The notes under the pieces are model-generated. The model was not told the origin of the DNA. It searched no databases and saw only the letters and a list, made by a program, of their open reading frames with translations. Position numbers and translations under genes: made by a program. A stretch of 64,000 bases of DNA, taken from NCBI GenBank assembly GCA_000830275.1, contig CP010424.1:1071311-1135310 (forward strand), read 5' to 3'. Each line of letters opens with the position of its first letter. Position 1 is the first letter of the stretch. Below are positions 2,814 through 60,236 of the stretch, in pieces. The stretch is from an archaeon GW2011_AR10. Its GTDB lineage: Archaea > Iainarchaeota > Iainarchaeia > Iainarchaeales > GW2011-AR10.

Positions 2814-2854
2814 TAAACGGTAACCCCCGTTCGGCTGCAAAGTCAGCCGGCACC

Positions 2855-2956
2855 TTGTACGTGTCCTTCCTTCGGAAGGACGGTAGTTCGTTCTCAGTTT
2901 GCAAGTTGTACGTGTCCTTCCTTCGGAAGGATGGTAGTTCGTTCTCAGTTTGCAAG
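2855..2956. repeat. Tandem 2 x 51-bp structured repeat (family-1 hairpin element; 7-bp stem GTCCTTC/GAAGGAC with CUUCG loop)
   Basis: Two near-identical 51-bp units (2855-2905, 2906-2956), one mismatch in the stem. A related GTGCC..GGCAT hairpin follows at 2957-2990. The spurious ORF 2806..3078 translates this repeat (NLQTENELPSFRRKDTY twice). Confidence 0.8.
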
Positions 2957-3063
2957 TTGTGCCGTGCGTTGCATGGCATTGGCCTGCCTTTTAGGTCTCG
3001 CACAATTGGTGTCATAACTAAAATTATAGCAAAACGCTTAAGTAATTGAACATTGAACTTGCG

Positions 3064-3120: not shown

Positions 3121-3133
3121 AGTTAAAATTATT

Positions 3134-3481: not shown

Positions 3482-3610
3482 GTTTTACACGGTGTGCCAT
3501 ACTCCTTTCAGTTGTATGGCACTGGCTCGGCTCTTGCGAGCCTCGCAAAATGGTAACCTCAATTTACGAGGTGTGGCATTTTCAGTGCCACGTGCTCGTT
3601 TCACTCGCAT
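3482..3610. repeat. Two family-1 hairpin units (GTGCCAT..TTTCAG..ATGGCAC; GTGGCA..TTTCAG..TGCCAC), each preceded by TTTACAC/TTTACGAGG
   Basis: Direct sequence inspection. Stems of 6-7 bp with conserved TTTCAG in the loop; the TGGCTCG motif is shared with the copy at 59590-59610. Confidence 0.65.
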
Positions 3611-3621
3611 AAATTAACCCA

Positions 3622-3910: not shown

Positions 3911-3984
3911 GGGCCTATAGCTTAGTGGACCAGAGCAAACGGCTTCGGACCGTTAGATCGGGGGTTCGAGTCCCTCTAGGCCCG
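3911..3984 (+). tRNA. tRNA-Arg (anticodon TCG)
   Basis: Hand-folded cloverleaf: acceptor GGGCCTA/TAGGCCC, D-stem GCTT/GAGC, anticodon stem AACGG/CCGTT with loop CTTCGGA (U33, anticodon TCG), T-arm GGGGG-TTCGAGT-CCCTC, discriminator G. No encoded CCA. Confidence 0.8.
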
Positions 3985-3985
3985 T

Positions 3986-4044
3986 AAAAACGGAAAGCTC
4001 CGTTTGCGAGCTGTACGTGTCCAACTTTCAGTGGGACGGTAGTA
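3986..4044. repeat. Family-1 element immediately 3' of tRNA-Arg (AAACGG-AAAGCT-CCGTTT hairpin, then GCGAGCTGTACGTGTCC..TTTCAG..GGGACGGTAGT)
   Basis: Near-identical to the copy inside the tRNA-Gly intron (59297-59358) and to the tandem units at 2855-2956. Confidence 0.7.
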
Positions 4045-4097
4045 CTGCTTCAGCCAGCGAGGTGCCTGTAAAACGGAAAATATTTAAAATTTGAGGA

Positions 4098-4781
4098 ATG
4101 AAAATGCCGCGGCCAAGAAAAAGATTGGAAAGGAAAAAGCCAGTTTATGGTACAGGGGCGATGGAGGGAGTAGAGTCAATAGTAAAAAGACTTAAAGGAA
4201 GAAAACTTGTTCACAAAGTATTCCGTTTGGGTTGGCTTGAAAAACACCTTGATTTTGGCGGAAATTTAAGGTGGATTTCTGAAAGATATGGAACAATGAT
4301 GCAAGACGCAAGAAGAGACTCCAACCTAATGGGTAGAAAAAGTCTTCATACAATTCCGCCAAACCAGTGGAAAATGTCAACCTTTATATTGGCAGGCCAT
4401 TCGGTGGATGTAATTAATACTGCAAGAAGGCTTGGAATTCCAACGCCAAAAGTTTTTAGGTCAGTTTTGGTTGACAAAAAATATTACGCTATCGAAATGA
4501 GTGACTTATCGAAGCGCGGCACAACTATCCTTGCTGGTCATCAGCTAAATTACGCACAGTATCAGAGAGGCATAAGCAATTATGAAGAATTAATGCGACA
4601 AATATGGGGGGATACAGAAAAATTGGGCAAGGCAGGTTATGTGGAAAGCTCACAACACTTACCTTTTGGGGGCTGGCTGATCAGAGTTAACAATAAAACC
4701 AAGATTGCGGAACGGTTCTTTGTTGATGCAACAAACTTCGTTTACATAAAAGAACCAGAAATTGTAAAAAAGAAAAAATGA
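4098..4781 (+). CDS. Hypothetical protein, possibly a degenerate RIO/Bud32-like small kinase fold
   Basis: 227 aa. Weak resemblances only: a Gly-rich GTGAMEGVES segment followed by a VHKVFR lysine, LAGHSVDVINT, FVDATNF. Not confidently assignable. Confidence 0.3.
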   Translation: MKMPRPRKRLERKKPVYGTGAMEGVESIVKRLKGRKLVHKVFRLGWLEKHLDFGGNLRWISERYGTMMQDARRDSNLMGRKSLHTIPPNQWKMSTFILAGHSVDVINTARRLGIPTPKVFRSVLVDKKYYAIEMSDLSKRGTTILAGHQLNYAQYQRGISNYEELMRQIWGDTEKLGKAGYVESSQHLPFGGWLIRVNNKTKIAERFFVDATNFVYIKEPEIVKKKK

Positions 4782-4782
4782 T

Positions 4783-6180
4783 TCAGTATTCCCCGAATTC
4801 CTCTTTTCCTTTAAGGTAAGAGGAGAACCATTCCTTGAATGCCTTGTTTTTATTGTAGAAAGCCAAGACTTTGGGGTCAGCCATTACTCCTGACCTTTTC
4901 TTTAGTGCCCTTGCAATATTGGCTTTTTCAGTCTGGCTCAATTTTTTCAGTAGTTCCTTCAGGAAAATTGTTGCAACCCAGTGCTTTCTTTCAATTTCCA
5001 CAACCCATCTTCCATGTTCAATGCGGGGCCCACTCAACGGGTTTTTGTGAAATTTCAGGAATCTTTCGCTGTGCGGTTCATTTGTTACTTCAGGCCCAAC
5101 TCTTTTAGCTGCTCTTTCCAGCTTGTTGGACTTTAAGTCAAAAACTATCACTGCATGCATTTTTTCATCAGTCCACTCAGATGAACGCAGAACCGCAAAC
5201 TCTTTTCTTTCAAGCTCGTTAACAATTTTTTTCCGCATTCTTTTCAGCTGCCCCCAGAAAACATCTGAAACAGTTTTTGCAGGGTAAGAGAACTCTATTA
5301 CAATCAGGCCCTCTTTTTCAATGAACTTTTTTGCCTGTGCTGCAGTCAAAGTCTTTGCTTTCTTTCCGAAGAAAAAATTTGTGGAAGGCTTTTTCAGGAA
5401 AGCCCGCGCAGCAGCAATGACTCTGGAGAACTGGTTCAATGAGAGTGCAGCGGCAACGTTCCTGTTTTTGTCAACAGGGTCAACTACAATTAGTGGCGCT
5501 CCAAACGTTTTCCTTGCATAATCTTCAGCTAACTGTTTTTCAATGTCAATAACTTCTTCTTTCTCCCATTTTGCAACTGCTTTGATAGTGCTCTCAAAGT
5601 CCCCGTAATTCAGAATAAGCAGCTCCGTTACATAGCCCGGAACAGAGCTTGTCTTAAGCTCCGCGCCGTACGCCTTAACCCCTTTCAGGAATTGCCTTAA
5701 CAGCCTTACCTCGTCCTTTTGTTTTTCGCTTAATTTTTTTTGAAGGTAAGCGTTGTGGAACGGGCTCCTGTCAACAGCGCTTTTTTTTGATTCAGTGCCA
5801 GTTATTTTGTAGCTTGGCACAATGTCCACTTTGAAACCGCTTATCTCGCCCCGAATGTAGGGGTGCTCTGAGTAAGCTTTCTCCCACTTGTGGCCCCTGA
5901 AAACTGCCTTTCCAATCCTCAGGCCCTCTCGTTCAAATTCTTTCCTTGAATAGTCTTCAGGGAAAAGAACAAAAATGTCAATGTCTCTGTCACCTTTCAA
6001 ATGCGTGCCCCGTGCAAGGCTTCCCGCGAGCAATACCTCAACCTGCCCTCTGCCAGTTTTCCTTACTTTTTCAATCAGCTTTCGCGAAAAAATTTCCTCT
6101 TCCAAGATTTCTTTTTTGCTTGGCTTGATTTTTTCCAGGACTTTTGCGAGAAGCTGCTTTATTTTAATCACCCAAATCAA
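4783..6180 (-). CDS. cca: CCA-adding enzyme (archaeal class I tRNA nucleotidyltransferase)
   Basis: GSLARGTHLKGDRDIDIFVLFP nucleotidyltransferase motif (GS...DxD); 465 aa, the typical archaeal CCA enzyme length. Confidence 0.75.
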   Translation of the reverse strand: MIWVIKIKQLLAKVLEKIKPSKKEILEEEIFSRKLIEKVRKTGRGQVEVLLAGSLARGTHLKGDRDIDIFVLFPEDYSRKEFEREGLRIGKAVFRGHKWEKAYSEHPYIRGEISGFKVDIVPSYKITGTESKKSAVDRSPFHNAYLQKKLSEKQKDEVRLLRQFLKGVKAYGAELKTSSVPGYVTELLILNYGDFESTIKAVAKWEKEEVIDIEKQLAEDYARKTFGAPLIVVDPVDKNRNVAAALSLNQFSRVIAAARAFLKKPSTNFFFGKKAKTLTAAQAKKFIEKEGLIVIEFSYPAKTVSDVFWGQLKRMRKKIVNELERKEFAVLRSSEWTDEKMHAVIVFDLKSNKLERAAKRVGPEVTNEPHSERFLKFHKNPLSGPRIEHGRWVVEIERKHWVATIFLKELLKKLSQTEKANIARALKKRSGVMADPKVLAFYNKNKAFKEWFSSYLKGKEEFGEY

Positions 6181-6244: not shown

Positions 6245-7816
6245 GTGGTTTTTTTGGCTTCTTCGTTGAAAGAAATTAAAGGAGTTAAAGTTGATTCCTA
6301 CGGTGAAACAGAGATATTTGAGGGCTTCCCTGTTTTTTTCTACTCAGTTGTTCAAGCCCCTCTATCAGAGCAGGAAAAAAACATTGCCTCTCTTTTAAGG
6401 AGCCTGATTGTGGGCAAGATTTCACTTGATGCAGCGCAGCAAAGTTCCGCACTTAAAATCGGCTCAGATTTCTTGGCAGAATTTCAGGACAGGATAATCA
6501 GCACTGTAAACTACAAGGAGGGGCTGAGCAAAATCATGTCCCCAGAGGACTACGATGCATTAAGGGTTGATCTGATTGCCTTGCTTAAACAGTTTTTTCC
6601 TAATCTGAAAAATACTCCTGAGCTGGTGAATCAGGTGCTGGATGCAACGGTTGGCTATGGCAGGATTTCTTCGCTGATGCGTGATTCAGAACTGGAGGAA
6701 ATAATGATTAACGGGTTCGACAGGCCAGTTTTTGTTTTCCACAAAACATTTGGGATGTGCAAAGCAAACCTTGTTTTCCAGAAAGGCCCTGAGCTGGAAC
6801 TATTAATCAACAAAATTGCCAGCACTGTGGGGAAAACATTTGACGATTCAGGCCCGCTGCTGGACGCAAGGCTGCTTGGCGGTAACAGAGCCAATGCAAC
6901 TTATCCATTAGTTACGCCTTTTGGCCCATCGCTTACAATCAGAAAGTTCACTAGAACCCCGCTATCAATAATTGACCTTATTGCGAACAGCACTCTATCC
7001 AGCGAGCTTGCAGCATTCCTTTGGGTTATGGTTGAAGGCTTAAACATTGAGCCAATGAACATTATAATTACCGGCGGCACCGGCAGCGGGAAGACAACAA
7101 CTCTTAATGTGTTGAGCTCTTTTATACGCCATCAGGACAGGATTGTTACAATAGAGGACACTCTTGAGCTTGACTTGGGCAGCCGAGAGAACTGGGTTCA
7201 GCTTGAGTCAAAGCCTCATTCCCGTGAGTCGCCTGAGGTGACAATGGATGACCTGTTAAAGAATGCTTTGAGGATGCGTCCTGACAGGATTCTTGTTGGA
7301 GAAGTTCGTGGCTCAGAAGCAAGAACGCTGTTTGTTGCAATGGACACTGGCCATCAGGGCAGCATGGGGACGTTGCACTCTAACAGCAGCAGTGAAATGA
7401 TTCTGAGGCTGAAGGCTGAGCCCATGGGTGTGCCAGAAGCAATGATTCCGCTGCTTGACCTCATCGTCGTTCAGTACAGGATGTACATTAAGGGAAAGGG
7501 CATTTTGAGGAGGATTGCACAGGTTTCTGAGGTTGCTTCAATGGAAAAGCAGGCCCTGCTCAGCAACGTTTTTGAGTGGAACCGCTCAGTTGACAAGATT
7601 GTTAAGACAGACATTCCAAGCCATATAATGGAAAAGCTGGCCGACAAAACAATGAGAACCAAAAAGGAAATCAGCCGCGAAATTGACGTGAGGAAAAAAG
7701 TGTTTGATTGGATGCTCGCAAACAATATACACTCCACTCCTGATGTTGAAACAGTAATTCAGCGCTACTATTATGATGCTGAAACAATACTTGAACGGGT
7801 TGCAGCTGACTTATAG
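6245..7816 (+). CDS. Type IV pilus/archaellum-type secretion ATPase (VirB11/FlaI/TadA family)
   Basis: Walker A GGTGSGKTTTLNVL, Asp box, His box TGHQGSMGTLHSNS. A paralog of the intein-containing ATPase at 27102-30257. Confidence 0.8.
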   Translation: MVFLASSLKEIKGVKVDSYGETEIFEGFPVFFYSVVQAPLSEQEKNIASLLRSLIVGKISLDAAQQSSALKIGSDFLAEFQDRIISTVNYKEGLSKIMSPEDYDALRVDLIALLKQFFPNLKNTPELVNQVLDATVGYGRISSLMRDSELEEIMINGFDRPVFVFHKTFGMCKANLVFQKGPELELLINKIASTVGKTFDDSGPLLDARLLGGNRANATYPLVTPFGPSLTIRKFTRTPLSIIDLIANSTLSSELAAFLWVMVEGLNIEPMNIIITGGTGSGKTTTLNVLSSFIRHQDRIVTIEDTLELDLGSRENWVQLESKPHSRESPEVTMDDLLKNALRMRPDRILVGEVRGSEARTLFVAMDTGHQGSMGTLHSNSSSEMILRLKAEPMGVPEAMIPLLDLIVVQYRMYIKGKGILRRIAQVSEVASMEKQALLSNVFEWNRSVDKIVKTDIPSHIMEKLADKTMRTKKEISREIDVRKKVFDWMLANNIHSTPDVETVIQRYYYDAETILERVAADL

Positions 7817-16166: not shown

Positions 16167-16443
16167 TTCAACTCAAAAGATACCTCGGCTTTTAAGCCGC
16201 GGTCATTGGTCTCGGTATCTTTTCAACACTTTGTCAAGTGAAATAAAAACACCTGTTTTCTTTTTGACAAAGTGTTGCGTTGACGGGTTCATGACGTCCA
16301 TTAAATGTTTGGATATCCCTGCCTTAAGCCTTTTAGAAAACCCAAGCAAAATCAGGGATTTTGCGGGCCTCGCAAAACCAAAGGTTTTACGAGGAGGCTT
16401 GCGAAAAAGAGGCTGCGCCTTTAGGCAGGGGAGGGCGTCATTT

Positions 16444-25960: not shown

Positions 25961-27124
25961 TCACACCCTCGGTTGGACAAATTTCAGGTAAACAAGCAAA
26001 AGCGCAATAACAAGCGGCATTATCAGCGCGTAAAAGATTATTATAAACTGTGGAGTAAGCTGGAATGCCTGTGAAAAGTTTACTCCTAATGGTGCATTGG
26101 TTACTGCGCCAATTATTGCTACAAAAACAGGCAGAACAATTGCACCGAAAATGAATATTACCCCAAAAAAATTCATTTTTTCCGCGAAGTCCCTTATCTT
26201 CATTCTCAGCTCGAATGAAACGTCCTCAGCGATTTCCCCCATAACGTTTGAAAGGTTGCCGCCGGTTTTAAGCGCCCTGATGACGTGGAACAAGGCGCTC
26301 CTCAGCGCTCTTGACTGGGTTCTCAGCGCGAAGTGCCTTAACGCGTCTTTAGTGTCAGTGCCCTCCTCTATCTCATTAATTGTTCTTGAAAACTCGTCTG
26401 ATAAAACCCCGTAATCTGACTGCGCTATTGCCTGCAGCGCTTTGTAGAGGCCTATTCCTGCCTTTAATTCTGTTGCCATGTGCCTTAATGCGAAAGGAAG
26501 TTCAACACTCATTTCGTCGCCTCTTCTTTGAGCAATTGTCTTGGGTATAATCATCACAAGTATGAGCGTAATGAAGAAGAACAGGATTCCAATCAACAGC
26601 GCGCTCCAGATGGGCCATGCCCATAAAAACGAGACTATTGCCCCTATGACCATTCCAAAAATCAGGCCTATTGCGGCTGAAGCAACGCTTAATGCAAGGT
26701 ATTGCTGCGCTGAAAACTTCATGTTTGCGCTGTAAAGGTAGTATGCTAACTCTTTTGCTATTGGAAACCTCCTGAGGTTTCGGGTTAGTGGCTTGAATAG
26801 GAACTGGAATGAGAGGTAAAAGTTTCCAAGCTGCCTTATTATTGGGGATCTAAACTCTTTCAGCTCTTCAACAGGCTGAACGTTTATTTTTGCTGCTTCC
26901 CCTTCCGCTATTATGCCGCGCAGCTCGCTAAGCCTTCCCCCAACTTCTTCAAATTCAATGCCTTGCTCGCGGTACTTTTTCTTCATTTTGGCGACTATTT
27001 TTTCAACCTGCTCCAGGTCAACGGTTTCCGGCTCGGCTAATTCATCCTTTCCAGGGGCTTTTATGTCTGCCTTCTTGCTCTCAATTTTTTTCCTTAAGTC
27101 ATCAATTGAAGGCACGCTTTCCAC
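25961..27124 (-). CDS. TadC/FlaJ-like pilus assembly membrane protein (T2SS-F domain), part 2
   Basis: ELPFALRHMATELKAGIGLYKALQAIAQ T2SSF-like domain. Together with the previous gene this resembles a split two-domain FlaJ/TadC. Confidence 0.6.
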   Translation of the reverse strand: MESVPSIDDLRKKIESKKADIKAPGKDELAEPETVDLEQVEKIVAKMKKKYREQGIEFEEVGGRLSELRGIIAEGEAAKINVQPVEELKEFRSPIIRQLGNFYLSFQFLFKPLTRNLRRFPIAKELAYYLYSANMKFSAQQYLALSVASAAIGLIFGMVIGAIVSFLWAWPIWSALLIGILFFFITLILVMIIPKTIAQRRGDEMSVELPFALRHMATELKAGIGLYKALQAIAQSDYGVLSDEFSRTINEIEEGTDTKDALRHFALRTQSRALRSALFHVIRALKTGGNLSNVMGEIAEDVSFELRMKIRDFAEKMNFFGVIFIFGAIVLPVFVAIIGAVTNAPLGVNFSQAFQLTPQFIIIFYALIMPLVIALLLVYLKFVQPRV

Positions 27125-30100
27125 CCCTGCTCAGCAGGTATTTTTCGCATTCAGTTGAAACCCTGTTTATGTCCCTTACATCAGTTTCAACCAACTTCTT
27201 TAACACTTTTTCCCTTTCCTTAATTTCCGCTTCAATCTGTTTTCTTTGCATTCCTGTAAACCTTTCAAGCACTTTGAGGTAATTAACTGGCGCACTTGTT
27301 CTCTTTAAACTGTCCGTTGCGGCATCATACTCGAATATTGCCTGGGTTTTTGTTTTTCCTTCAAGCACGCCGTATACCTCAGAAATTTCTGTAATCCTCC
27401 TGATAGTACCCTTCTTTTTGTCGTGTAGCCTGTGCTCAACAATTATGAAGTCAAGGCCGCTCATCATTATTTCCGGCACGTTCATCGGGGGAGAAGTAAT
27501 CCTTACAATTGTTTCCTCCGGCGAATTAGCGTGAACTGTGCCAAGGCAGTTTGAAACAAATAGGCCGTTTGCAATGTAATTGTGGTTGTCTTTTACAGTC
27601 AAGTCATACATATAACCATTGAACTCTTCTTCTTCAATTTTCACAATTTCCTCAAATCGGAAATCTGAATTGACTAGCATTAAAACCTCTTTGCCCATTG
27701 AAGTGTTAGCGGTAATATTTGCGATTTTTTCTAGCTGGTTTCTTGAAGGGCTTCTTTTATTTGTTTCATATGCCTCAATGGTTGACCTTGTCTGCGTTCC
27801 CATTAATGAAGCCAGTTCTGTTTGCGTCATTGAAGCATCATTTCTTGCTTTTCTAATCAGTGCAGAAATTTTTGGGAACAAATCTTTTGCATTTTTTGAA
27901 CTTAAAATTAATTTTTCAAGTTTTTTACTTTTTTCAGCATGCCCAAATCCTATTTTGTTTGCAAATTTTTCTAAATTGTCCTTTCCATAAATTGATACCC
28001 TATAATATGGCCCAATTTTTCCTTTTCCGTCCCTTTCTTGGGTGTTTAGCGATGAATGAATGCCAAATCTTTGAATTATCATTGGAAGCTTTCTGGCTAT
28101 CCTGGGGTTGGAGGTTGAAAACTGAATTGATTGAGAGTGAAGATTTACGTGAGCATCTGCATCAAATAAGCCCCTGATAAGTTTTCCAAGCCCTGATTGG
28201 CTCGCGGTCAAAACTTTTTTATTTAATTCAAAAATTTTTGTCTTGTTTCCAAGAGGGATGTCATATTCGTTTACGATTTTTTTGACCAATTTTTTGTCAT
28301 AAACATTTACTCTTGAAAAGCCACCGAAATCTTTGATTGAAATCTTATTTTTTGTAACTTCCCCAATTCCCCTTTCAAAACTTTGTATAAGGGACGGTTC
28401 TTTGTTAACAAACTGGATTCCTTCGCTGTGGATGTGCCCGTCTCCGTAAATTAAACCCATAAGATACGGTTTAATTATTTCTTCACTTGCATTAATTGGA
28501 ATTTGCTTTGGAAACGCAATAAAGTCCCCTTTTTTTGCTTCTTCTGCATTTATTTCCTGAATGCCATTGTTTATTCTGTAAATGGGGTGGTCTTCAGTTA
28601 ACCTAATTTCTTTGCCTGACTTGGTTTTAATTCTTCTAATTTTTTGTCTTGCATTTTTTCTCCAAACCCTTATTACTGGGTTATCCTCAATTTTAAACGT
28701 TTTTTTGTTGAAGCTTGGGACAAATATTTCCCCCTTAATATCAACAAATTCAAAGTCCCCTTCTTTTAAGGGATTTTTTTCCATGAATTTATTTTCAACA
28801 AAATTTCCTATTTCCTCAATGTTGCCATTAGAAAACTGAATTAATGTATCGCCTGTTGTTGCACCATCATGGCCCGTATTCATTGCAGTGAACAATGAGA
28901 ATGCCTCATCGTGCCTTATTTCTCCTACAATTATCCTGTCAGGCCTCATCCTCAAAGAGTTCTTGGTTAAAATGTCAAGGCTTATTTCTCCTGTTCCTTC
29001 AATGCCCGGCGGCCTTCCCTCAAACCTTATCCAGTGCTTGAGCGGAAGATTCAATTCAGCAGTGTCTTCGATTGAAATAATTCTCTCGTGCCTTGGAATA
29101 AATGATGCCAGCACGTTCAATGTTGTTGTTTTGCCGCTTCCAGTGCCGCCTGAAATGACAATGTTTGCAGGCTTCACTCCCATGCCTTCAACGCAAGCCC
29201 ACAGAAAAGCTGAGGCTTCCAGTGTCACAGTGTTCATTTTAATCAAATCAATCATGGAGAAAGGGTCTCCCCTAAATTTCCTGATAGTTAAAGTTGCACC
29301 GCTGACTGAAGCCGGAGGGATTGTTGCGTTGACCCTGCTGCCGTCAGGCAGCCTTGCATCCAGAAGAGGAGCCGAAATGTCAATCCTTCTTCCCACTTGC
29401 CGTGCAATCCTGTTAACCAAGTCAATTATTTCTTGGTCAGAGAAAAACTCAATGTTTGTTGTCATCATCTCATACTGCCTGTGGAAAACGTAAACAGGCT
29501 GGCCTTGGCCGATAACCATTATTTCCTCAAGTTTGTCGTCGTTAACCAGCGGGTCAATCATGCCGTAGCCAACCATTTCTCTTACAACTGCATCAGCGTA
29601 AAAGTCAAACCTTGAGGCAGGAATGTTTAATTCAGGCGAGCTGCGTATTATCTCCATTATTCGCTGATAGTAAACGTTTCTTTTCTGCTCCGGGTCCCTG
29701 ATTTTGTAAGGAGTGATGCTGATAATTCTTGTTGCCGCTTCCTTTATGGTGTTAATGATTGTTTTCTCTGTGCCAGCGGAGCGCGGCACCGGAGTCCAAT
29801 AGTATAGCAGGGGCTCCCCCTCAACCCTGTAAATTTTTATGTTCCCATAAGAGTCTATTTCCTCCTTTTCTGCCTGCTCCATTTGTTTTTCGGTTTTGGA
29901 TTTGGCTGTCTTAACTGGAAGGCGCTGTTCAGTTGCAGGGGCAACTTCCAAAGCCTCTTGTTCTGTTTCCTTAACTGCTTCGGGTTTTTTTCTGGAGCTC
30001 GGTTCCTTTACTGATTCCCTTGGAATAACAATTTTTGTAAAAATTTTTGCAGGCTTAAACGGTTCTATTTCAGCAGGGGCTGCTTTGCGTTGAGCTTCTC

Positions 30101-30257
30101 CCTCCGGCATCCTTTTGAGGGCCTCAATGATTTTCTGCTTCTTTTGTTCCTTCTCTTCCTCGGCTTTTGAGTCAGCAACGCCTGCCTTTTTCTTCTTCAT
30201 TTGCTCAATCAAGTCACCCATATAGCTAGGCATGGCTAATCCATTATGAAGACGCAT
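27102..30257 (-). CDS. VirB11/FlaI/KlbA-type secretion ATPase interrupted by an intein
   Basis: Walker A ISGGTGSGKTTTLNVL. The His-box reads TGHDG|A...N|CLGTVHANS, where the paralog (6245-7816) has the uninterrupted TGHQGSMGTLHSNS. Long charged N-terminal extension. Confidence 0.8.
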   Translation of the reverse strand: MRLHNGLAMPSYMGDLIEQMKKKKAGVADSKAEEEKEQKKQKIIEALKRMPEGEAQRKAAPAEIEPFKPAKIFTKIVIPRESVKEPSSRKKPEAVKETEQEALEVAPATEQRLPVKTAKSKTEKQMEQAEKEEIDSYGNIKIYRVEGEPLLYYWTPVPRSAGTEKTIINTIKEAATRIISITPYKIRDPEQKRNVYYQRIMEIIRSSPELNIPASRFDFYADAVVREMVGYGMIDPLVNDDKLEEIMVIGQGQPVYVFHRQYEMMTTNIEFFSDQEIIDLVNRIARQVGRRIDISAPLLDARLPDGSRVNATIPPASVSGATLTIRKFRGDPFSMIDLIKMNTVTLEASAFLWACVEGMGVKPANIVISGGTGSGKTTTLNVLASFIPRHERIISIEDTAELNLPLKHWIRFEGRPPGIEGTGEISLDILTKNSLRMRPDRIIVGEIRHDEAFSLFTAMNTGHDGATTGDTLIQFSNGNIEEIGNFVENKFMEKNPLKEGDFEFVDIKGEIFVPSFNKKTFKIEDNPVIRVWRKNARQKIRRIKTKSGKEIRLTEDHPIYRINNGIQEINAEEAKKGDFIAFPKQIPINASEEIIKPYLMGLIYGDGHIHSEGIQFVNKEPSLIQSFERGIGEVTKNKISIKDFGGFSRVNVYDKKLVKKIVNEYDIPLGNKTKIFELNKKVLTASQSGLGKLIRGLFDADAHVNLHSQSIQFSTSNPRIARKLPMIIQRFGIHSSLNTQERDGKGKIGPYYRVSIYGKDNLEKFANKIGFGHAEKSKKLEKLILSSKNAKDLFPKISALIRKARNDASMTQTELASLMGTQTRSTIEAYETNKRSPSRNQLEKIANITANTSMGKEVLMLVNSDFRFEEIVKIEEEEFNGYMYDLTVKDNHNYIANGLFVSNCLGTVHANSPEETIVRITSPPMNVPEIMMSGLDFIIVEHRLHDKKKGTIRRITEISEVYGVLEGKTKTQAIFEYDAATDSLKRTSAPVNYLKVLERFTGMQRKQIEAEIKEREKVLKKLVETDVRDINRVSTECEKYLLSRGGKRAFN
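27549..28862 (-). mobile_element. Intein (438 aa, Ala1-type like Mja KlbA) with LAGLIDADG homing endonuclease
   Basis: Inserted exactly between G465 and C904. Starts with Ala, ends ...NHNYIANGLFVSN, with C as +1. Two LAGLIDADG motifs (LMGLIYGDGHI, LIRGLFDADAHV) plus an HTH-like segment. Confidence 0.75.
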
Positions 30258-35742: not shown

Positions 35743-35807
35743 TCTACCCCCAGAAAGAATTTTCCATGATAACAGTTTTAAACTAATGTCAGCACTTATT
35801 TATATAA

Positions 35808-35940
35808 CAAATGACCTTACTTTGTCAAACATTTTTGTCATTTGCTATCTGTCAGGTGACAATAAATATTCAAAAATTAAAGCAGGTTGCTATAGCAAAT
35901 GAACAATAATTGTTCAATTATTAATGTAATTCGCTATAAC
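35808..35940. promoter_or_regulatory. Family-2 repeat element (TTTGCTATA-containing) upstream of rfcS
   Basis: 35837-35880 is the reverse complement of 49386-49429 (2 mismatches in 44 bp). TTGCTATA motifs are repeated. Confidence 0.6.
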
Positions 35941-49221: not shown

Positions 49222-49269
49222 TCAATCAACTCAAGCTATGGCAAAATGCTTATTTATTTGAACAAAAAT

Positions 49270-49470
49270 TGCATTTTGCAACTAGCAAACAGCAAATTAA
49301 TGCTCAAAAATCAAAGCTGTTTGCTATATATCAAATGACATTAATAATTGAACATTTATTATTCATTTGCTATAGCAGGCGACATTAATTTTTGAGCATT
49401 TATTGTCGCCTGACAGATAGCAAATGACCTTATTTTTTCAAATATTTTCGCCATTTGCTATATTTTTGGC
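49270..49470. promoter_or_regulatory. Family-2 palindromic/inverted-repeat element cluster upstream of topA
   Basis: TAGCAAACAGC (49283-49293) and GCTGTTTGCTA (49316-49326), as at 3073/3106. 49386-49429 is the reverse complement of 35837-35880. Four TTTGCTATA copies. Confidence 0.65.
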
Positions 49471-50496: not shown

Positions 50497-50612
50497 AAAT
50501 GTGCCTTGCGGCACAGCCTTTTAAAAAAAGGCTGGCGAAAATGTGGCTTCGCCGAAGCCTTTTAAAAAAAGGCTGGCGAAAATGTGCCTTGCGGCAAAAC
50601 CTTTTTATAGCA
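50497..50612. repeat. Tandem ~41-bp hairpin repeat (family 3: GTGCCTTGCGGCAC / AGCCTTTTAAAAAAAGGCT / GGCGAAAATGTG)
   Basis: ~2.5 direct copies. Each unit contains two hairpins, one with a palindromic CCTTTTAAAAAAAGG stem-loop. Lies in the divergent promoter region. Confidence 0.75.
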
Positions 50613-52538: not shown

Positions 52539-54698
52539 TTGATTCGAATGAAAAAATTTTTTTCACAGTTGTTTGTGCTGCTTTTTCTGGTTTTTTTTAT
52601 TCCGTTCGTTGCTGCACAGGACTGCACTATTAAGCCAAGCTGCCTTGCTTCAGAGTTTGCAGTTTTCTCTGTTCCAAGCACAACAAATGCTCACGCGTCA
52701 ACCGCTGTTTCTGGTGCAGGCTCTTACTCCAATAAAGTCTGCTGCCCGTCCTCCGAATTTTCGGGCAACAGCTGCAGTGATCCAAATAAGGACGTTGCCC
52801 TGAACCTTTACAATGCAATGAACTCGCATGTAGAGCAGGATGGTTTGGGCAATTACTTTAATCCCGTTTGCCTTACTGCTGCAACGCAAGTAACCTGCTG
52901 GTACACAAGCGATGATTGTTCTGTTGCTGATGGTGTTGGAGTTGCAAGCATCTGGGATGGGCTCTGGGAAACAGGGGATGCAATTCAAATCACTAACGCC
53001 CACGTTGAGCAATACAATGGCTCGGGCAATTACCCGATAAACGTTTGCTGTTCTGCTTCGGCTCCCTCAACTGATGTTTGCGGTGACGGAACCGTTTCAG
53101 GCACAGAGGTTTGTGATCCTGCCCAAACTCCTGCAGAAATTGCGGCAATCTGCGGTGCAGGCAACGTCTGCGTTCCAGCTGGCCTTGCAACTGAATGCAC
53201 TTGCAATGCGCCTCCGATAGTGCAAATCATTGCACCTCCTGATGGGGCATCGTATGACATTGATGATGACATGCCCGTGTTGTTTGAAGGAACTGTAAGT
53301 GATATGGATGATGGCACAATATTTAACAGGTTTAATCCTCCTCCTCTTGGAAGGGTTGTGTGGCAGTCAAGCCTTGAAACAGTTGACGGCGGTTTCTTTG
53401 GTTGGGATGCCTTGTGGTTTGAGCGCCAGTTAACAAAAGTCGGAACACACACAATAACCCTTTATTACACTGATTCTGAGGCAGCGCAGGCAAGCACTAC
53501 TGTTGACATCACTGTTTCGCAGTGCAGCGATGGAGCAGTTACAGGAGATGAAGAATGCGACATTGGCGGCATTAGTGGCGCGCCAGCCGTTGCATGCACG
53601 AACCCGGTTCAAACATGCAACCTTGACTGTGAATGTGTTTCAGGCCCTGCAACCCCAACATGCAATCTTTCAGTATCAGATAACACTGTCGGCCCCGGGG
53701 ATTCAGTAACAGTTGACGTTTCATTGGACGATTTTTCTACAAATCCTACTACATTTGGCAGCGTTTCATGCGGTGATGCTGCCTCATATGAAGCAGACTT
53801 TTCCTGTACCGGCAACAATTGTTCCTTTTCCTGCGGCCCTTACTCAGCCAATGGAACAATAGAGAATTTGCAGTTGAATGATGGCGTAACAACTGTAACT
53901 TGCAGTGGCGCGGTTGATATTAGTGTAGGCTCTCCAAGTGTGCCTTCGTGTTCAATTTATGCAATCCCCACAACAGTTGCTTCCGGTGGAAATGTTCTTG
54001 TAACTTTCATTTACTATGATTTCTCTGCAACCCCAAGCTTTTTAGGAATTGATTGCGGCAATGGCGCAACCCCAAGCTCCTTTAATTGCGCACCAACGTG
54101 CTATCTTACCTGCGATTCTTACTCAACCAATGGAACAATTGAGAACGCGGTTTTAAGTGATGGCGGAACCTCTGTTAACTGCGCAAACTCATATAATATT
54201 ACTGTTTCAGGCGGCCCCGGTCCAGGGCCTGCAGGAGATATTTGGGGTGTGAAGCTTTTGGCAAGCGATGATTACAATTCTTCGTCAAACTTTAGGGTAA
54301 TGGTTAGCATTACAAATTTTTCCACCGCACAAAAAGACGCTGATATTACTGTGCAGCTTGTTGACCACTTAAGCGGGCTGCCTCTTTCTCCAGCAATAAC
54401 TGCAACAAAAACCATGCTTGTTGCCGGAAACAGCTCTACGCTTGATGTGGAATTCATTGAAGCAGATTTCTCTTCACCAATTCTTCCGAGAAATTACAGA
54501 GTTGTTGCTTCCGTTCCTGCCTACAATGATGGCATAACAATTGAAACTGTTATCGGAAACAATACTGATAGTAAAGTTGTTGTTGTCGGCGAGGCAAAGG
54601 CTGTTGCAATTTCCGAGCTGCCTTTGGAGCTTGTTGCAGTCATAGCTTTGGTTGTTTTAAGTATTCTTGGCGGTGCAGTTCCAGCCAAAAAAAATTGA
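52539..54698 (+). CDS. Large Cys-rich cell-surface protein with C-terminal TM anchor
   Basis: Signal peptide MKKFFSQLFVLLFLVFFIPFVAAQ; an internally duplicated Cys-rich domain (CTGNNCSFSCGPYSANGTIENLQLNDG / CAPTCYLTCDSYSTNGTIENAVLSDG); C-terminal hydrophobic helix then KKN. Confidence 0.6.
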   Translation: MIRMKKFFSQLFVLLFLVFFIPFVAAQDCTIKPSCLASEFAVFSVPSTTNAHASTAVSGAGSYSNKVCCPSSEFSGNSCSDPNKDVALNLYNAMNSHVEQDGLGNYFNPVCLTAATQVTCWYTSDDCSVADGVGVASIWDGLWETGDAIQITNAHVEQYNGSGNYPINVCCSASAPSTDVCGDGTVSGTEVCDPAQTPAEIAAICGAGNVCVPAGLATECTCNAPPIVQIIAPPDGASYDIDDDMPVLFEGTVSDMDDGTIFNRFNPPPLGRVVWQSSLETVDGGFFGWDALWFERQLTKVGTHTITLYYTDSEAAQASTTVDITVSQCSDGAVTGDEECDIGGISGAPAVACTNPVQTCNLDCECVSGPATPTCNLSVSDNTVGPGDSVTVDVSLDDFSTNPTTFGSVSCGDAASYEADFSCTGNNCSFSCGPYSANGTIENLQLNDGVTTVTCSGAVDISVGSPSVPSCSIYAIPTTVASGGNVLVTFIYYDFSATPSFLGIDCGNGATPSSFNCAPTCYLTCDSYSTNGTIENAVLSDGGTSVNCANSYNITVSGGPGPGPAGDIWGVKLLASDDYNSSSNFRVMVSITNFSTAQKDADITVQLVDHLSGLPLSPAITATKTMLVAGNSSTLDVEFIEADFSSPILPRNYRVVASVPAYNDGITIETVIGNNTDSKVVVVGEAKAVAISELPLELVAVIALVVLSILGGAVPAKKN

Positions 54699-54742
54699 GC
54701 TACTGCGCGTAGAAGTGAATTTAAAGGCTCCTTGAGAATGCG
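54651..54742. repeat. Direct repeat copy 1 (~92 bp) flanking the TA cassette; includes the 3' end of the surface-protein gene
   Basis: ~94% identical to 55582-55673. Confidence 0.8.
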
Positions 54743-54795
54743 CTGCCGGCAAATCAAGACAAATAATTTTAAATGCATTTGTATACAATTGTAAT

Positions 54796-55284
54796 ATGTT
54801 TGTTTCAAACACTTCAACCCTGATACTGCTGGCAAAAGTTGATTTGCTGGGCCAATTCATTGAAAATTTTGGGAAAATCGAGATAACTGGAGAGGTAAGC
54901 AAAGAGTTTTCTGCAAAAGATTCTTTTGATGCAAAATTTATAAGCCGCTTAATTGAAGAGAAAAAAGTAATCGTCAAAAAAGCGGAGAGTAACATGGTTT
55001 CTGGTATTTTGATGGAGTTTTCCTTGGATAAGGGCGAGGCAACGGCGTTTGCATTATTTAATGAAAAAAGGCACAAAGCAATTTTGACGGACGACTATGA
55101 ATTAATAAAACTGTGCATGCTGAGGGAAGTACAGTTTCTTTCTGCAATGGCAATAGTTGTCAGAATGAAAGAAAAAAAGATTTTGAGCAAAGAAGAAGCC
55201 CTGCAAAAAATCAATGAATTAAACTCTTATGGGCGATATTCAAGAGAGTTGCTCGATTTTTACGTTTCGGAGGTGAAAAAGTGA
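54796..55284 (+). CDS. PIN-like nucleic-acid-binding protein (DUF3368/COG2405), putative toxin
   Basis: VSNTSTLILLAKVDLLGQF N-terminus matches the DUF3368 start (vvDtS.LIaLakig.LdLL). Confidence 0.55.
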   Translation: MFVSNTSTLILLAKVDLLGQFIENFGKIEITGEVSKEFSAKDSFDAKFISRLIEEKKVIVKKAESNMVSGILMEFSLDKGEATAFALFNEKRHKAILTDDYELIKLCMLREVQFLSAMAIVVRMKEKKILSKEEALQKINELNSYGRYSRELLDFYVSEVKK

Positions 55285-55568
55285 GAACTACATCAGTAAG
55301 ATTGGAAGAACCGGAATCGGTCACGGCTTTTCAGAAAGTCCTAAAGGAAAAAAAATCAGAAGTGTTGCGGCAGCTAATAGAAAAAGGCCGCAAGGCAAAG
55401 TCGCTGGAATTGTTCAAGCAAAAAAAAGTATCCCTCGGCCTTGGAGCAAGACTGGCAGGTTTAACAGTAAGCGGGTATTTGGACCTATTGGAAGAAAACA
55501 GGATACCGCTAAACCTTTCCAGACGAGAAGCACAAAAAGCATTAAATACTGCGAGAAAAGTAATGTAA
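55281..55568 (+). CDS. UPF0175-family antitoxin-like protein (COG2886)
   Basis: VSLGLGARLAGLTVSGYLDLLEENRIPLN matches the UPF0175 core (isLgkAAelAGms..eF..lL.e.gIp). Overlaps the upstream gene by 4 bp. Confidence 0.55.
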   Translation: MRTTSVRLEEPESVTAFQKVLKEKKSEVLRQLIEKGRKAKSLELFKQKKVSLGLGARLAGLTVSGYLDLLEENRIPLNLSRREAQKALNTARKVM

Positions 55569-55581
55569 GCCATATCCAAAG

Positions 55582-55673
55582 GTTGTTTTAAGCATTCTTG
55601 ACGGTGCAGTTCCAGCCAAAAAAAATTGAGCTACTGCGCGTAGAAGTGAATTTAAGGGCTCCTTGTGAGTGCG
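55582..55673. repeat. Direct repeat copy 2 (~92 bp) flanking the TA cassette
   Basis: See copy 1; ends at the orc1 upstream region. Confidence 0.8.
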
Positions 55674-55719
55674 TTTCCGGTGCAAGCCTTTTAATCTTCT
55701 TCCGACAATATTTTTTTTG

Positions 55720-58009: not shown

Positions 58010-59197
58010 TCAGTGTGACAACTGTATTTTTATCACGTCGTTGTTTTTGAGCTCGTGGTCTTTTCCTATTCTTTGGCCTGTCCTGCAGTCAACTGCTGCG
58101 ATGAACCTTTCAACGAAGCCTGAGTGAATTGCTTCCGCCAGCCTAATAGCAGTTGAGCCCTTTCTCAGCAAGTAAGCGTCAGGCAAAAAGTTTCCTTTCC
58201 CGCTCTGCCACTTGTTTGAGTCCTGCACTGGGTAAACAACTATTAGGCTCAAAAGCCCGAAAGCAGTTTTATTGATTGCCTGTTGGACGCCGGTGCTGCC
58301 CCACTTTTTCAAAACATTTGACATTATGAATTCTAGTGCTTTCCTCTGCTTTTCTGGGAGTTCTTGTTTCAGCAGCTTGAATTCGCTGCTGCCTGGCACA
58401 TACTCAATTATTCCTGCTTTTGCTGCTTTCCTTAACGCAAGCTCCGCTTCACTGCAGCACGGGATTATAATGTGCTGCGGGAACTCCTTGACAAGCCTTT
58501 CATAGTTTTCCTTTGCGCCCTCCAAATCAATCTTGTTTGCAACAACAATCATTGGCTTGCTTTTTTTTCTTATTTCCTCAGAAAATCGCAGTATTTCCTC
58601 CTCACTCCATGAGTCTGGCTTTTCGCTGAAGGAGCCTTTCTCCAGAACGCTTTTGACTTCATCTTCTGTTATGCCTAGGCCTGTTAGCTGATTTGCAAGC
58701 CCCTCGCTTGCTTTCCCTGCAAGGGATGCCTGCTTCGAGATTTTGCCCCAGTTCTTGGTGAGAATTCCATTAATCCAATAGCTTATTTCTTTTTCAAGGA
58801 ACCGCACATCCTCTGCCGGGTCATTGCTCTCAACGGAGTTTCCCTCAAGGTCTGTTCTCCCGCTTGCATCAAGCACCTGAATCAGTGCTTTTGCCTGCAT
58901 CAAGTCATTCATGAAAGCATTTCCAAGGCCCTTTCCTTTGTGGGCGTCAGGCACCAATCCTGCAACATCCAGCAAAGTGATTGGAATAAGCCTTATGCTA
59001 TTCTCGCACTTGCTGTTAACGGGCTGGCAGGGCTTTTCTTTTTCCTCGTGCACGCATTTTGTTGAAACATATGCTGTGCCCTGGTTGGGCTTGATTGTTG
59101 TGAAAGGCCGGTTCGCTATTTCCACATCAACAAGCGTTGCTGCGCTAAAAAAAGTTGATTTTCCCTTGTTTGGGCCCCCTACAACGCCTATAATCAT
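58010..59197 (-). CDS. Obg-family GTPase (YchF/OLA1-like) with C-terminal TGS-like domain
   Basis: G1 GVVGGPNKGKST, a FTT effector region, C-terminal ...NDVIKIQLSH. Confidence 0.6.
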   Translation of the reverse strand: MIIGVVGGPNKGKSTFFSAATLVDVEIANRPFTTIKPNQGTAYVSTKCVHEEKEKPCQPVNSKCENSIRLIPITLLDVAGLVPDAHKGKGLGNAFMNDLMQAKALIQVLDASGRTDLEGNSVESNDPAEDVRFLEKEISYWINGILTKNWGKISKQASLAGKASEGLANQLTGLGITEDEVKSVLEKGSFSEKPDSWSEEEILRFSEEIRKKSKPMIVVANKIDLEGAKENYERLVKEFPQHIIIPCCSEAELALRKAAKAGIIEYVPGSSEFKLLKQELPEKQRKALEFIMSNVLKKWGSTGVQQAINKTAFGLLSLIVVYPVQDSNKWQSGKGNFLPDAYLLRKGSTAIRLAEAIHSGFVERFIAAVDCRTGQRIGKDHELKNNDVIKIQLSH

Positions 59198-59261
59198 TTT
59201 GCCCCGAAATCACTTCTCTTTCAATCATTCTTTAATTTTAACTGAAAAAAATTATGTGCAG

Positions 59262-59444
59262 GCAGCTGTAGTGTAATGGCAGCATCCGAGCTTCCCAAAA
59301 GCGGAAAGGCCCGTTTACGACCTGTACTTGTTCCACTTTCAGTGGGACGGTAGTTCAAGGTTTGCTCAAGTTTGCTCATACGGCCTTAGTTATTTTCACG
59401 ATTGGAATGAGCTCGTAGCCCGGGTTCGAGTCCCGGCAGCTGCA
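59262..59444 (+). tRNA. tRNA-Gly (anticodon CCC) with ~112-nt intron at position 37/38
   Basis: Exon 1 is 59262-59297 (acceptor GCAGCTG, D-stem GTGT/GCAT, anticodon stem CGAGC, loop TTCCCAA); exon 2 is 59410-59444 (A-GCTCG-TAGC-CCGGG-TTCGAGT-CCCGG-CAGCTGC-A). The intron, 59298-59409, contains a family-1 element. An alternative register gives Trp(CCA) but needs C33. Confidence 0.6.
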
Positions 59445-59625
59445 TTAAACCGTATTCGGTTTACGAATGTGCCATGCTCCGTTTCACTTTGCATGGCACT
59501 GCTCAAACGGAAAGATCCGTTTACGACCTATATGTGTGCCATCTTCGATGGCACGATAATTTTGCTCAGTTGCAAGGTGTGCAATCTGCGATGGCACTGG
59601 CTCACTTCGTTCTCCAAAAAAAGAA
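59445..59625. repeat. Cluster of 3-4 family-1 hairpin units (GTGCCAT..ATGGCAC stems; AAACGG-loop-CCGTTT hairpins; TTTACGA linkers)
   Basis: Direct inspection; shares TTTACGACCT, AAACGGAAAG and TGGCTC motifs with copies at 2855-3000, 3482-3610, 3986-4044. Confidence 0.65.
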
Positions 59626-59929
59626 AGAAGAGAAAGGGTCAGTTGACCCTTTTTAATTCCTTTATCCTTTCCTCGATTCCTTTGACTTCGTTTTCAAGGC
59701 TGTCCTTGTATTCTTCCAGCATTTCTATTTTCTCTTCTTTTGTAAGGTACCTTCTTGGGGCTTCAAAGCCTTCCCCGCAACATACGTAACTCACTCCAAT
59801 TCCTCCCGAACATTTAATTTGTATCGGTTATACGATACTTAAGTAGTATTTATACTAAGGCATATTTATATATATCGGTCACCCAATATTAGTATGCATG
59901 ATACTAGTTATGCCAGATACTGTTGTGAC

Positions 59930-60199
59930 ATGCGCGGCATGCTTTCCTTTCTCATTCTTTTCTTGCTCTCGAAGAAGAAAATGCATGGGCAGGAACTTGC
60001 AGAAGAAATCGGGCGAAGGAAAGGCTCGAAGCCCAGCCCCGGCACAATTTACCCTGCACTCAAGGGCCTGAGGGAAGAAGGCCTGATTGCTGAGAAAAGG
60101 GAGGGAAAGAAAGTTACTTACAGTTTAACCAAGGAAGGCGAAGCAGGTTTAAAGGATGCAAAAAAGCAGTTCTGCAGGACCTTTGTGGGCGTTTTCTAG
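59930..60199 (+). CDS. PadR-family transcriptional regulator
   Basis: MHGQELAEEIG...SPGTIYPALKGLREEGLI, a PadR wHTH. The track ORF starts at 59894; the Met at 59930 matches the PadR N-terminus. Confidence 0.7.
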   Translation: MRGMLSFLILFLLSKKKMHGQELAEEIGRRKGSKPSPGTIYPALKGLREEGLIAEKREGKKVTYSLTKEGEAGLKDAKKQFCRTFVGVF

Positions 60200-60236
60200 T
60201 AAACTGTATTAATTGTTTTTGCACTAAATAATTTTT

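Follow-up and report, generated by a model that had tools for sequence, protein, structure and literature searches.

The stretch of DNA analyzed here (the window) comprises 64,000 nucleotides (nt) of contig CP010424.1, positions 1,071,311 to 1,135,310 of the forward strand, from the DPANN archaeon GW2011_AR10 (AR10; assembly GCA_000830275.1). At 59262-59444 it contains a sequence that reads as a tRNA-Gly(CCC) gene once 112 nt are removed from its anticodon loop, and the first half of the removed segment matches a hairpin repeat present elsewhere in the window. This raises the question of whether the locus is a working tRNA gene and, if so, how its intron became this long. The account we consider probable is that of a functional tRNA-Gly(CCC), spliced by EndA, whose intron, originally short, grew by taking up a passenger hairpin repeat specific to this lineage.

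When the intron search was enabled, ARAGORN called a tRNA-Gly(ccc) at 59262-59444 with the intron i(37,112). This is the check that a first-pass annotation, made from the letters alone, had suggested, and it returned the same isotype, anticodon, canonical intron position and intron coordinates as that annotation had proposed. The parts of the gene are the following.

59230..59244, + strand: putative archaeal promoter, an A/T-rich TATA-like stretch CTTTAATTTTAACTG located 18-32 nt upstream of the tRNA-Gly 5' end (sequence reading)
59262..59297, + strand: tRNA-Gly(CCC) 5' exon, positions 1-37, with the anticodon CCC at 59294-59296 (ARAGORN intron search, pair list)
59292..59300, + strand: 5' half of a bulge-helix-bulge (BHB) motif, with UUCC at 59292-59295, the bulge CA/A at 59296-59298 (cut after 59297) and AA at 59299-59300 (pair list)
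59298..59409, + strand: 112-nt intron at the canonical 37/38 position (ARAGORN; a motif scan gives exactly 59298-59409 as the excised segment)
59402..59410, + strand: 3' half of the BHB motif, with UU at 59402-59403, GGAA at 59404-59407 and the bulge UG/A at 59408-59410 (cut after 59409) (pair list)
59410..59444, + strand: tRNA-Gly(CCC) 3' exon, positions 38-73, with the discriminator A last and CCA not encoded (ARAGORN)

Joining the two exons yields a 71-nt cloverleaf in which all stem positions are paired (ARAGORN, pair list), as had been expected for the excision of this segment. The acceptor stem has 7 base pairs (bp), the D stem 4 bp (two of them G-U), and the anticodon and T stems 5 bp each. 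The invariant positions U8, A14, G18-G19, U33, A37, U54-U55-C56, A58, C61 and A73 are intact (sequence reading), and the T loop is UUCGAGU. The anticodon loop reads U-U-CCC-A-A, the discriminator is A, and the acceptor stem contains the pairs G1-C72 and C2-G71 (ARAGORN cloverleaf). An NCC anticodon combined with U33, a purine at position 37, A73, G1-C72 and C2-G71 is what we take to be the archaeal type of glycine identity. The exons are contiguous, on one strand and in normal order, i.e., the gene is neither split nor permuted. The region is base-for-base identical in five independent assemblies, and in a sixth a single base outside the gene differs. In the 64-kb window neither ARAGORN without the intron search nor Rfam's tRNA model, applied at the gathering score, picked up the gene, which implies routine annotation would miss tRNA-Gly(CCC) as well.

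The junctions carry the BHB motif whose inspection at 59297/59298 and 59409/59410 had been recommended by the first-pass annotation. In its 4-bp central helix, U32, U33, C34 and C35 (59292-59295) pair with GGAA (59404-59407). This helix is flanked by a 5' bulge formed by C36, A37 and the first intron base (59296-59298) and by a 3' bulge formed by the last two intron bases, UG, and A38 (59408-59410), each of 3 nt. Outer helices are present on both sides, namely the 5-bp anticodon stem and an inner helix AA/UU that begins with A59299-U59403 and A59300-U59402. The published archaeal motif consists of a 4-bp helix with two flanking 3-nt bulges, the first two anticodon bases being paired with the intron inside the helix (PMC4090602), and the tRNA-Gly(CCC) intron has this geometry, with anticodon bases 34-35 lying within the central helix. 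A loose BHB-like motif is common in shuffled sequence according to our motif scan, so the weight rests on six pairs at positions fixed beforehand by the cloverleaf. By our own arithmetic, six Watson-Crick pairs at those positions would arise by chance with a probability of about 2e-4, or 3e-3 when G-U pairs are allowed. In a fold constrained to the BHB motif, the inner helix is lengthened by the pairing of 59302-59311 with 59383-59400, and the intron takes the shape of a rod with the repeat hairpin as its cap. The unconstrained minimum-energy fold favors a shifted register. As read from these letters, 59262-59444 is very probably a real tRNA-Gly gene with a spliceable intron.

The reported lengths of archaeal tRNA introns span 11-129 nt, and tRNA-Trp aside, the medians are 12-25 nt (PMC4090602). 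The 112-nt intron is therefore extreme and near the top of the reported range, yet inside it: the statement that it is about five times longer than typical holds against the medians, but the length itself has published precedent. Compared with the canonical pre-tRNA intron, which is processed by EndA and RtcB through the BHB motif, the tRNA-Gly intron has the same 37/38 position, the same 4-bp helix with bases 34-35 and the same two 3-nt bulges, and it differs in that most of its extra length is a genomic repeat. Introns at the tRNA sites seen in relatives measure 15-42 nt. Short canonical introns of 15-23 nt are present in six of the sixteen syntenic tRNA-Arg(TCG) orthologues (L025, L033, L034, L035, L037 and L041), and two of these, L034 and L041, were mislabelled tRNA-SeC by ARAGORN.

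Two further DPANN contigs provide comparisons. In the first, L049, a tRNA-Gly(CCC) is interrupted at the canonical position by 42 nt and forms the same UUCC/GGAA central helix, so that the AR10 genome is not alone in having an intron in this isoacceptor. On the same contig (tRNA loci 3056-3168 and 5329-5439), ARAGORN mislabels as Cys a tRNA directly after a PadR gene; this tRNA is apparently Val(UAC), and about 41 nt are inserted ahead of its anticodon stem. The second, L050 (JGI 3300038558), has a tRNA-Lys(CUU) with two introns of about 39 nt each. It also contains a hairpin GAAGGCGUC-AAGA-GACGCCUUC at 3410-3477, 6966-6988 and 7195-7217, sites that lie just upstream of two tRNAs, in the trailer of the second tRNA, and in the non-canonical (D-arm) intron of tRNA-Lys(CUU). 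As far as its sequence can be read, L050 presents the same sharing between intron and flank as AR10, with an unrelated hairpin sequence.

The origin of the extra length is indicated by the first 53-58 nt of the intron, the part that matches the repeat. In a within-window search, 59302-59354 aligns with 3991-4043 at 86.8% identity over 53 nt (E = 5.5e-9), and a second alignment gives 86% over 58 nt; 3991-4043 lies in the 3' flank of the tRNA-Arg gene, where the first-pass annotation had also located the element. The unit shared by the copies consists of hairpin 1 (AAACGG-loop-CCGUUU) followed by a core module (in order, UGUAC-N-UGU, the first stem strand, the loop YUUCR, the returning strand and GGUAGU). 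Two types of hairpin are distinguished below, and the copies and their surroundings are as follows.

59298..59316, + strand: hairpin 1 of the intron, AAA(G)CGG-AAAGGC-CCGUUU, whose 5' half pairs instead with 59383-59403 in the BHB fold (alignment, constrained fold)
59317..59362, + strand: type-1 core module of the intron, ACGACC-UGUAC-U-UGUUCCAC-UUUCA-GUGGGACGGUAGU (model R1, 59.7 bits; pair counts; repeat family D1)
59359..59378, + strand: module tail with a tandem 10-mer, GGUUUGCUCA and AGUUUGCUCA, like the inter-module linker ...CAGUUUGCAAG at 2888-2905 (sequence reading)
59383..59409, + strand: 3' part of the intron, with the strands that complete the inner and central helices; candidate remnant of a short ancestral intron (blastn-short, constrained fold)
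3911..3984, + strand: tRNA-Arg(TCG), intronless, whose 3' flank holds the closest paralogue of the intron element (ARAGORN, Rfam tRNA model)
3986..4051, + strand: element copy 2 nt past tRNA-Arg, with the hairpin AAACGG-AAAGCU-CCGUUU (3988-4005) and a type-1 core (4006-4051) (reference copy of D1; R1, 62.3 bits)
59445..59610, + strand: 3' trailer of tRNA-Gly, three modules (fold z-score -6.5; R1, 57.4 bits for 59523-59568; alignments)
59447-59462 and 59469-59499, + strand: trailer module 1, the hairpin AAACCG-UAUU-CGGUUU and the type-2 hairpin GUGCCAUGC...GCAUGGCAC, respectively
59505-59522 and 59523-59568, + strand: trailer module 2, the hairpin AAACGG...CCGUUU and a core module, respectively
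59572-59605, + strand: trailer module 3, terminal, GCAAGGUGUGC...AUGGCACUGGCUCA
59631..59660, + strand: terminator-like hairpin AAAGGGUC-AGUU-GACCCUUU, then a U-rich run (terminator scan)
2814..3000, + strand: intergenic cluster in the EF-1beta/Rad50 spacer, with two small hairpins, tandem type-1 modules at 2850-2895 and 2901-2946, and a terminal type-2 hairpin at 2946-2990
3487..3600, + strand: third cluster, with a type-2 hairpin at 3491-3530 (very like 59465-59503), the hairpin GGCUC-UUGC-GAGCC, and UUUACGAGGU-GUGGCAU-UUUCA-GUGCCAC at 3565-3595

The last 55 nt of the intron (59355-59409) have no significant repeat in the window (blastn-short). The non-repeated 3' part of the intron, which carries ...GAUUGGAAUG, has the size of a normal intron and supplies all the helix partners, and in the constrained fold it is complementary to the 5' part of the module, extending the inner helix. 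The 112-nt length would be explained by some 60-90 nt (59297 to ~59380) being a copy of the hairpin module family.

The members of this family are short, imperfect palindromes that recur in non-coding DNA and have conserved flanks; five type-1 modules and several type-2 variants lie at four loci. The type-1 core modules are all on the + strand (2850-2895, 2901-2946, 4006-4051, 59317-59362 and 59523-59568), and the tandem units measure 51 nt each. Aligning the five copies gives a 12-bp hairpin with one bulged base (59325-59352 in the intron copy), with 98.3% of the stem cells paired. Six of the twelve pairs change on both sides, and none of 500 shuffles reached the observed covariation score. 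The YUUCR loop, the flanks UGUAC and GGUAGU, and one U-G pair are conserved, the last invariantly. The type-2 hairpin, GUGCCAURC…GYAUGGCAC-UGGC, occurs at 59465-59503, 3491-3530, 2946-2990 and 59572-59605. The third cluster occupies the spacer between the gene of a small Zn-finger protein (Pfam HVO_2753_ZBP) and EF-1beta, and all modules of the two spacers (2814-3133, 320 nt, and 3398-3621, 224 nt) are on the + strand, antisense to the operon of the Zn-finger gene, EF-1beta and Rad50. Hence, the family-1 element of the first-pass annotation is indeed common to the intron and the tRNA-Arg 3' flank, but it is not specific to tRNA 3' ends, as it also fills these spacers. Folding energies are alike on the two strands of the modules, with no strand favored, and a loose scan for BHB motifs around the trailer modules gave no more hits than shuffled sequence, which lends no support to their excision by EndA. 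The terminator-like hairpin at 59631-59660 is common to the tRNA-Gly trailer and to a convergent DUF5320-like open reading frame (ORF; 59639-59794, - strand; Pfam). A CRISPR array or replication-origin boxes were rejected as explanations of the hairpins, given that whole 51-nt units are repeated, there are no spacers, and the stems vary with pairing kept.

A strain represented by contig L044 (12133-12166, equivalent to 4012-4043 of the window) is 99.07% identical over 1.5 kb, and 10 of its 14 differences fall inside the module behind tRNA-Arg. Eight of these are a swap of the stem top and loop, GUCCAAC-UUUCA-GUGGGAC to GUCCCUU-CUUCG-AAGGGAC, with perfect pairing kept. Judged from the two sequences, the compensated swap points to either gene conversion between copies or rapid, structure-constrained change.

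Outside this genome, the family is nearly absent from what was searched. The core pattern TGTACKTGTYCN11GGAYGGTAGT has four matches in the window against zero expected, and zero matches in the collections viral_contigs and metagenome_contigs, the latter evidently not including this organism's own contigs. Over 472 kb of relatives' DNA, model R1 found one weak match, on L024 (21.7 bits, E = 0.003). There, at 2169-2335, several similar hairpins also stand just past the gene of a CCA enzyme 56% identical to that of AR10, on the same strand as that gene, which hints at divergent versions of the family in related genomes. In sixteen relatives, too, tRNA-Arg accompanies the CCA-enzyme gene, and in none of the sixteen is there a module behind tRNA-Arg; in the five relatives whose trailers were read, an oligo-T run follows almost directly 3' of tRNA-Arg. 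The EF-1beta/Rad50 spacer measures 36-56 nt in two relatives versus 320 nt here, while in L043 the interval is about 720 nt and holds an extra ORF. From the Zn-finger gene, whose counterpart in L043 is labelled Ribosomal_aS21, to EF-1beta the distance is 9 nt in L043 versus 224 nt here. Given the absence of modules from the relatives' sites and from the collections, the family appears to be young and confined to this lineage.

The tRNA-Gly locus itself also varies. In the closest relative by the GTPase, GCA_974426465.1 (75% identity), the genes of the RFC large subunit (RFC-L) and the GTPase are 46 nt apart, with no tRNA-Gly, PadR or module between them, and no tRNA was found at the GTPase-syntenic site in twelve GTDB relatives and three closer contigs. 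The block 59445-60236 around tRNA-Gly, with its trailer, the DUF5320-like ORF and PadR (59894-60199), is missing at L019 9954-10001. From this comparison, the block with tRNA-Gly, the DUF5320-like ORF and PadR may have been either inserted here or lost in the closest relative.

Several known kinds of element were searched for and not found. Neither a C box (RUGAUGA, at most one mismatch) nor a D box (CUGA) is present in the intron, the trailer or the copy behind tRNA-Arg, and there is no ACA triplet in the intron or the trailers, which rules out a box C/D or H/ACA guide RNA in the intron. At the gathering score, Rfam returned only tRNA-Arg for the whole window; scans of 59150-59700 and 2780-4120 at a permissive E-value returned chance-level matches only, with no C/D-box family above chance. 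Lacking boxes and an Rfam family, the element is not the C/D-box arrangement of tRNA-Trp introns, in line with the first-pass annotation, which had described a hairpin element in place of such a guide. With respect to mobility, no transposase domain was found among the 46 ORFs of the window (Pfam); a weak DDE_Tnp_1 fragment lies just past its right end, about 7 kb from tRNA-Gly (14 kb of extra flank was scanned). The EndA and RtcB genes were not found in the window or the fetched flanks in the same kind of scan. In the repeat-related literature searched for this compact-genome clade, no such repeat family was found.

The proposed sequence of events is as follows. Transcription of the tRNA-Gly would run on through a structured trailer (about 190 nt) as far as the hairpin with its U-run at 59631-59660. 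The BHB motif would form from the anticodon arm and the intron, EndA would cut after 59297 and after 59409, and an RtcB-type ligase would join the exons into the 71-nt tRNA, the intron being probably circularized. Excised introns are circularized in other archaea, and the same is expected for this one. As to its history, which we infer together with the neutrality of the module, a module would have been inserted or copied into the loop of a short ancestral intron, of which the 3' ~27 nt, carrying the helix partners, would be the remnant. The BHB motif would have been left intact, and the module would be a largely neutral passenger removed by splicing. For this last element, a passenger repeat that enlarged a short intron, we put the chances at even or marginally better.

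Several observations weigh against this account. Cleavage by the splicing endonuclease, ligation, circularization and the limits of transcription are deduced from the gene's sequence. No tRNA-Gly(CCC) orthologue was obtained from a close relative, so the ancestral intron length is arrived at only indirectly, and neither terminal inverted repeats nor target duplications, which could account for mobility, were recognized at the module borders. The passenger component faces signs of selection on the module: pairing is kept through double changes, the YUUCR loop and the UGUAC and GGUAGU flanks are conserved, in one strain the stem top and loop have been exchanged with full compensation, all copies share one orientation, and hairpin 1 starts 1-3 nt past a processing site, either a tRNA 3' end or the 5' splice site.

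The same signs are what recommends reading the modules as functional small RNAs matured by tRNA processing, the intron copy being released as a stable circle. RNase Z at the tRNA 3' end, or EndA at the 5' splice site, would make a 5' end just before a protective hairpin, and the tRNA-Gly intron and the trailers would be expression cassettes, like the C/D-box RNA in the tRNA-Trp intron. That short distance separates hairpin 1 from the end of tRNA-Arg (3985), from that of tRNA-Gly (59445) and from the 5' splice site (59298), compensatory changes (the swap in one strain included), the invariant U-G pair and the conserved loop preserve the fold, and the trailer folds far better than its shuffles (z = -6.5). 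In addition, both tRNAs of the window carry modules, with copies all in the tRNA sense, and an analogous hairpin repeat is found in the tRNA leaders, trailer and intron of contig L050. We nevertheless regard this reading as rather unlikely: the modules have no known guide-RNA boxes and no Rfam family, two clusters lie not behind a tRNA but in spacers of an opposite-strand operon, the folding energies do not distinguish the strands, and the absence of modules from the examined sites of close relatives excludes an ancient essential role. A stronger candidate, although still short of an even chance, is that the modules act as DNA, either as selfish palindromes like REP (repetitive extragenic palindromic) sequences or MITEs (miniature inverted-repeat transposable elements), moved by a transposase encoded elsewhere (e.g., IS200/IS605, RAYT), or as protein-binding sites, the intron then being among the rare places where a compact genome tolerates an insertion. 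Such a reading shares ground with the passenger account, from which it differs solely by naming a DNA-level mechanism of spread. It accommodates copies that are multiple, lineage-specific and placed in intergenic or otherwise removed sequence, the tandem 51-nt units, an orientation that is the same regardless of the direction of neighboring genes, and the patchy strain-level replacement that suggests gene conversion between copies. Conserved GTAC/GTAG tetranucleotides also flank the imperfect palindrome, presumably in the manner of bacterial REPs. Against it stand the lack of a transposase in the window or the 14 kb of extra flank, save the weak DDE_Tnp_1 fragment, the lack of recognizable inverted-repeat ends or target duplications, and the G-U pairs, the invariant U-G included, which suggest that selection acts on the + strand, in the form of RNA or of single-stranded DNA.

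The other two alternatives concern the gene rather than the repeat. Were the locus a tRNA-Gly(CCC) pseudogene, with a repeat inserted in the anticodon loop and splicing lost, the absence of the gene from the syntenic site in the closest relative and the repeat nature of the insert would be accounted for, and tRNA-Gly(CCC) can be dispensable where tRNA-Gly(UCC) reads GGG. Yet all stem pairs and invariant tRNA bases are intact, a perfect central helix with two 3-nt bulges would follow a random insertion with a probability of ~1e-3 or less, the 3' part of the intron is complementary to the 5' part of the module and extends the inner helix, and several assemblies carry the identical sequence; a pseudogene is thus very improbable. 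The possibility of a tRNA-Trp(CCA), read one base out of register and with an intron of 110 nt, can be given hardly any credence. Its anticodon stem GAGCU/AGCUC does pair at five of five positions, but C33 would have to replace the universal U33 and position 26 would have to hold two bases, as the first-pass annotation noted in correctly placing it second, and its central helix pairs at only three of four positions. ARAGORN picks Gly(CCC), no C or D boxes are present, and the tRNA body resembles the tRNA-Gly(CCC) of L049; its GCA... start, short D loop, 4-nt variable loop and A73 are what we assume to be the look of an archaeal tRNA-Gly. What remains in favor of tRNA-Trp is that long Trp introns are a known precedent (PMC4090602).

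Comparison with known systems helps to place the functional gene with an enlarged intron. The tRNA-Trp introns that encode a box C/D guide have a median of ~65 nt. The euryarchaeal tRNA-Trp(CCA) intron (~105 nt in Haloferax, this length being the first-pass annotation's figure) is likewise a long canonical intron with a discrete structured RNA element, which splicing releases. Here, however, the isoacceptor is another, there are no C/D/C'/D' boxes and so no C/D-type kink-turn, no guide complementarity was identified, and the element is multi-copy and also present outside introns. In the Thermoproteales, intron transposition and similarity between introns and the leaders of split tRNAs have been described (Fujishima et al. 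2010, as summarized in PMC4090602). As in those cases, a near-identical sequence in an intron and in another tRNA-associated non-coding segment of one genome implies recent movement or copying; in contrast, the paralogue here is a 3' trailer and intergenic repeat instead of an intron, the host belongs to DPANN, and the tRNA halves are contiguous. The modules are like REP/BIME (bacterial interspersed mosaic element) and MITE-like repeats in being short, multi-copy, intergenic palindromes with compensated stems, conserved tetranucleotides, tandem arrangement and strain variability, and unlike them in that neither a transposase linked to them nor inverted-repeat ends or a target duplication was found, that they belong to an archaeon, and that copies lie in a tRNA intron and at tRNA 3' ends. 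Small RNAs linked to tRNAs, co-transcribed with them and freed by RNase Z or RNase P, exist in Nanoarchaeum and some viruses. The AR10 modules similarly begin right at the tRNA 3' processing site, but they match no recognized small-RNA class. In short, the kind of intron is known, and what is new is its content, a genomic hairpin repeat common to the intron and to tRNA flanks.

The tRNA-Gly gene is surrounded by housekeeping genes, namely Orc1/Cdc6, a YchF-type GTPase, PadR, RFC-L and PheRS. Many contigs labelled Candidatus Diapherotrites, among them GCA_013332025.1 and a contig of 1.24 Mb, encode this GTPase and the CCA-adding enzyme with identical sequence; the organism is also present in JGI 3300025309 and 3300009296, in ENA ERZ28563625, ERZ27254763 and ERZ4903072, and in the groundwater set PRJNA268031 (ERZ909595). 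The nearest GTDB species representatives are Candidatus Iainarchaeum, with 58-59% identity. Between the element behind tRNA-Arg and the CCA-enzyme gene lies a 227-aa ORF with no Pfam match (4098-4781), which may be co-transcribed with tRNA-Arg, since no T-run separates the two until ~4075. In most relatives examined, no more than a few hundred bases separate tRNA-Arg from the CCA gene, though some have other ORFs between.

Elsewhere in the window, 27102-30257 (- strand) encodes a 1051-aa ATPase of type II/IV secretion (T2SSE/PilB-like), interrupted by an intein that has LAGLIDADG homing-endonuclease and helix-turn-helix domains. Direct repeats of 100 nt, 93% identical (54650-54749 and 55581-55680), enclose a DUF3368/UPF0175 pair (54796-55568) just upstream of Orc1/Cdc6, and this segment may be a small inserted cassette. 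Intergenic palindromes TATAGCAAA…TTTGCTATA, unrelated to the hairpin modules, are present at 3025-3118, 35804-35848, 49237-49356 and 49417-49461. A/T-rich palindromic boxes, AGCCTTTT-AAA-AAAAGGCT then GCGAAAA, are located upstream of genes at 233-267, 16381-16415 and 50515-50590, with a similar box at 3866-3900 upstream of tRNA-Arg; these may be promoter or regulator sites.

For the organism and its relatives, the practical consequence is that genomes of this lineage appear to be without tRNA-Gly(CCC) when default tools are used, which distorts estimates of the completeness and codon capacity of DPANN metagenome-assembled genomes. The identity of ~87% between an intron and the 3' trailer of another tRNA is direct sequence evidence that intron content can be recruited from flanking repeats, or the reverse, and so has a bearing on the gain and growth of tRNA introns in archaea. 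The repeat family may be a selfish element or a new class of small RNA. The pattern of sharing between flank and intron is seen in two unrelated families, that of AR10 (the tRNA-Gly intron; the tRNA-Arg and tRNA-Gly trailers) and that of L050. A broader and distinctly speculative proposal is that genome-specific hairpin repeats of the DPANN clade move between tRNA flanks (leaders and trailers) and introns, either as small RNAs that tRNA-processing enzymes mature, the intron copy being freed as a circle, or as raw material for intron gain and enlargement. If true, this would offer a concrete and testable route for the gain of archaeal tRNA introns.

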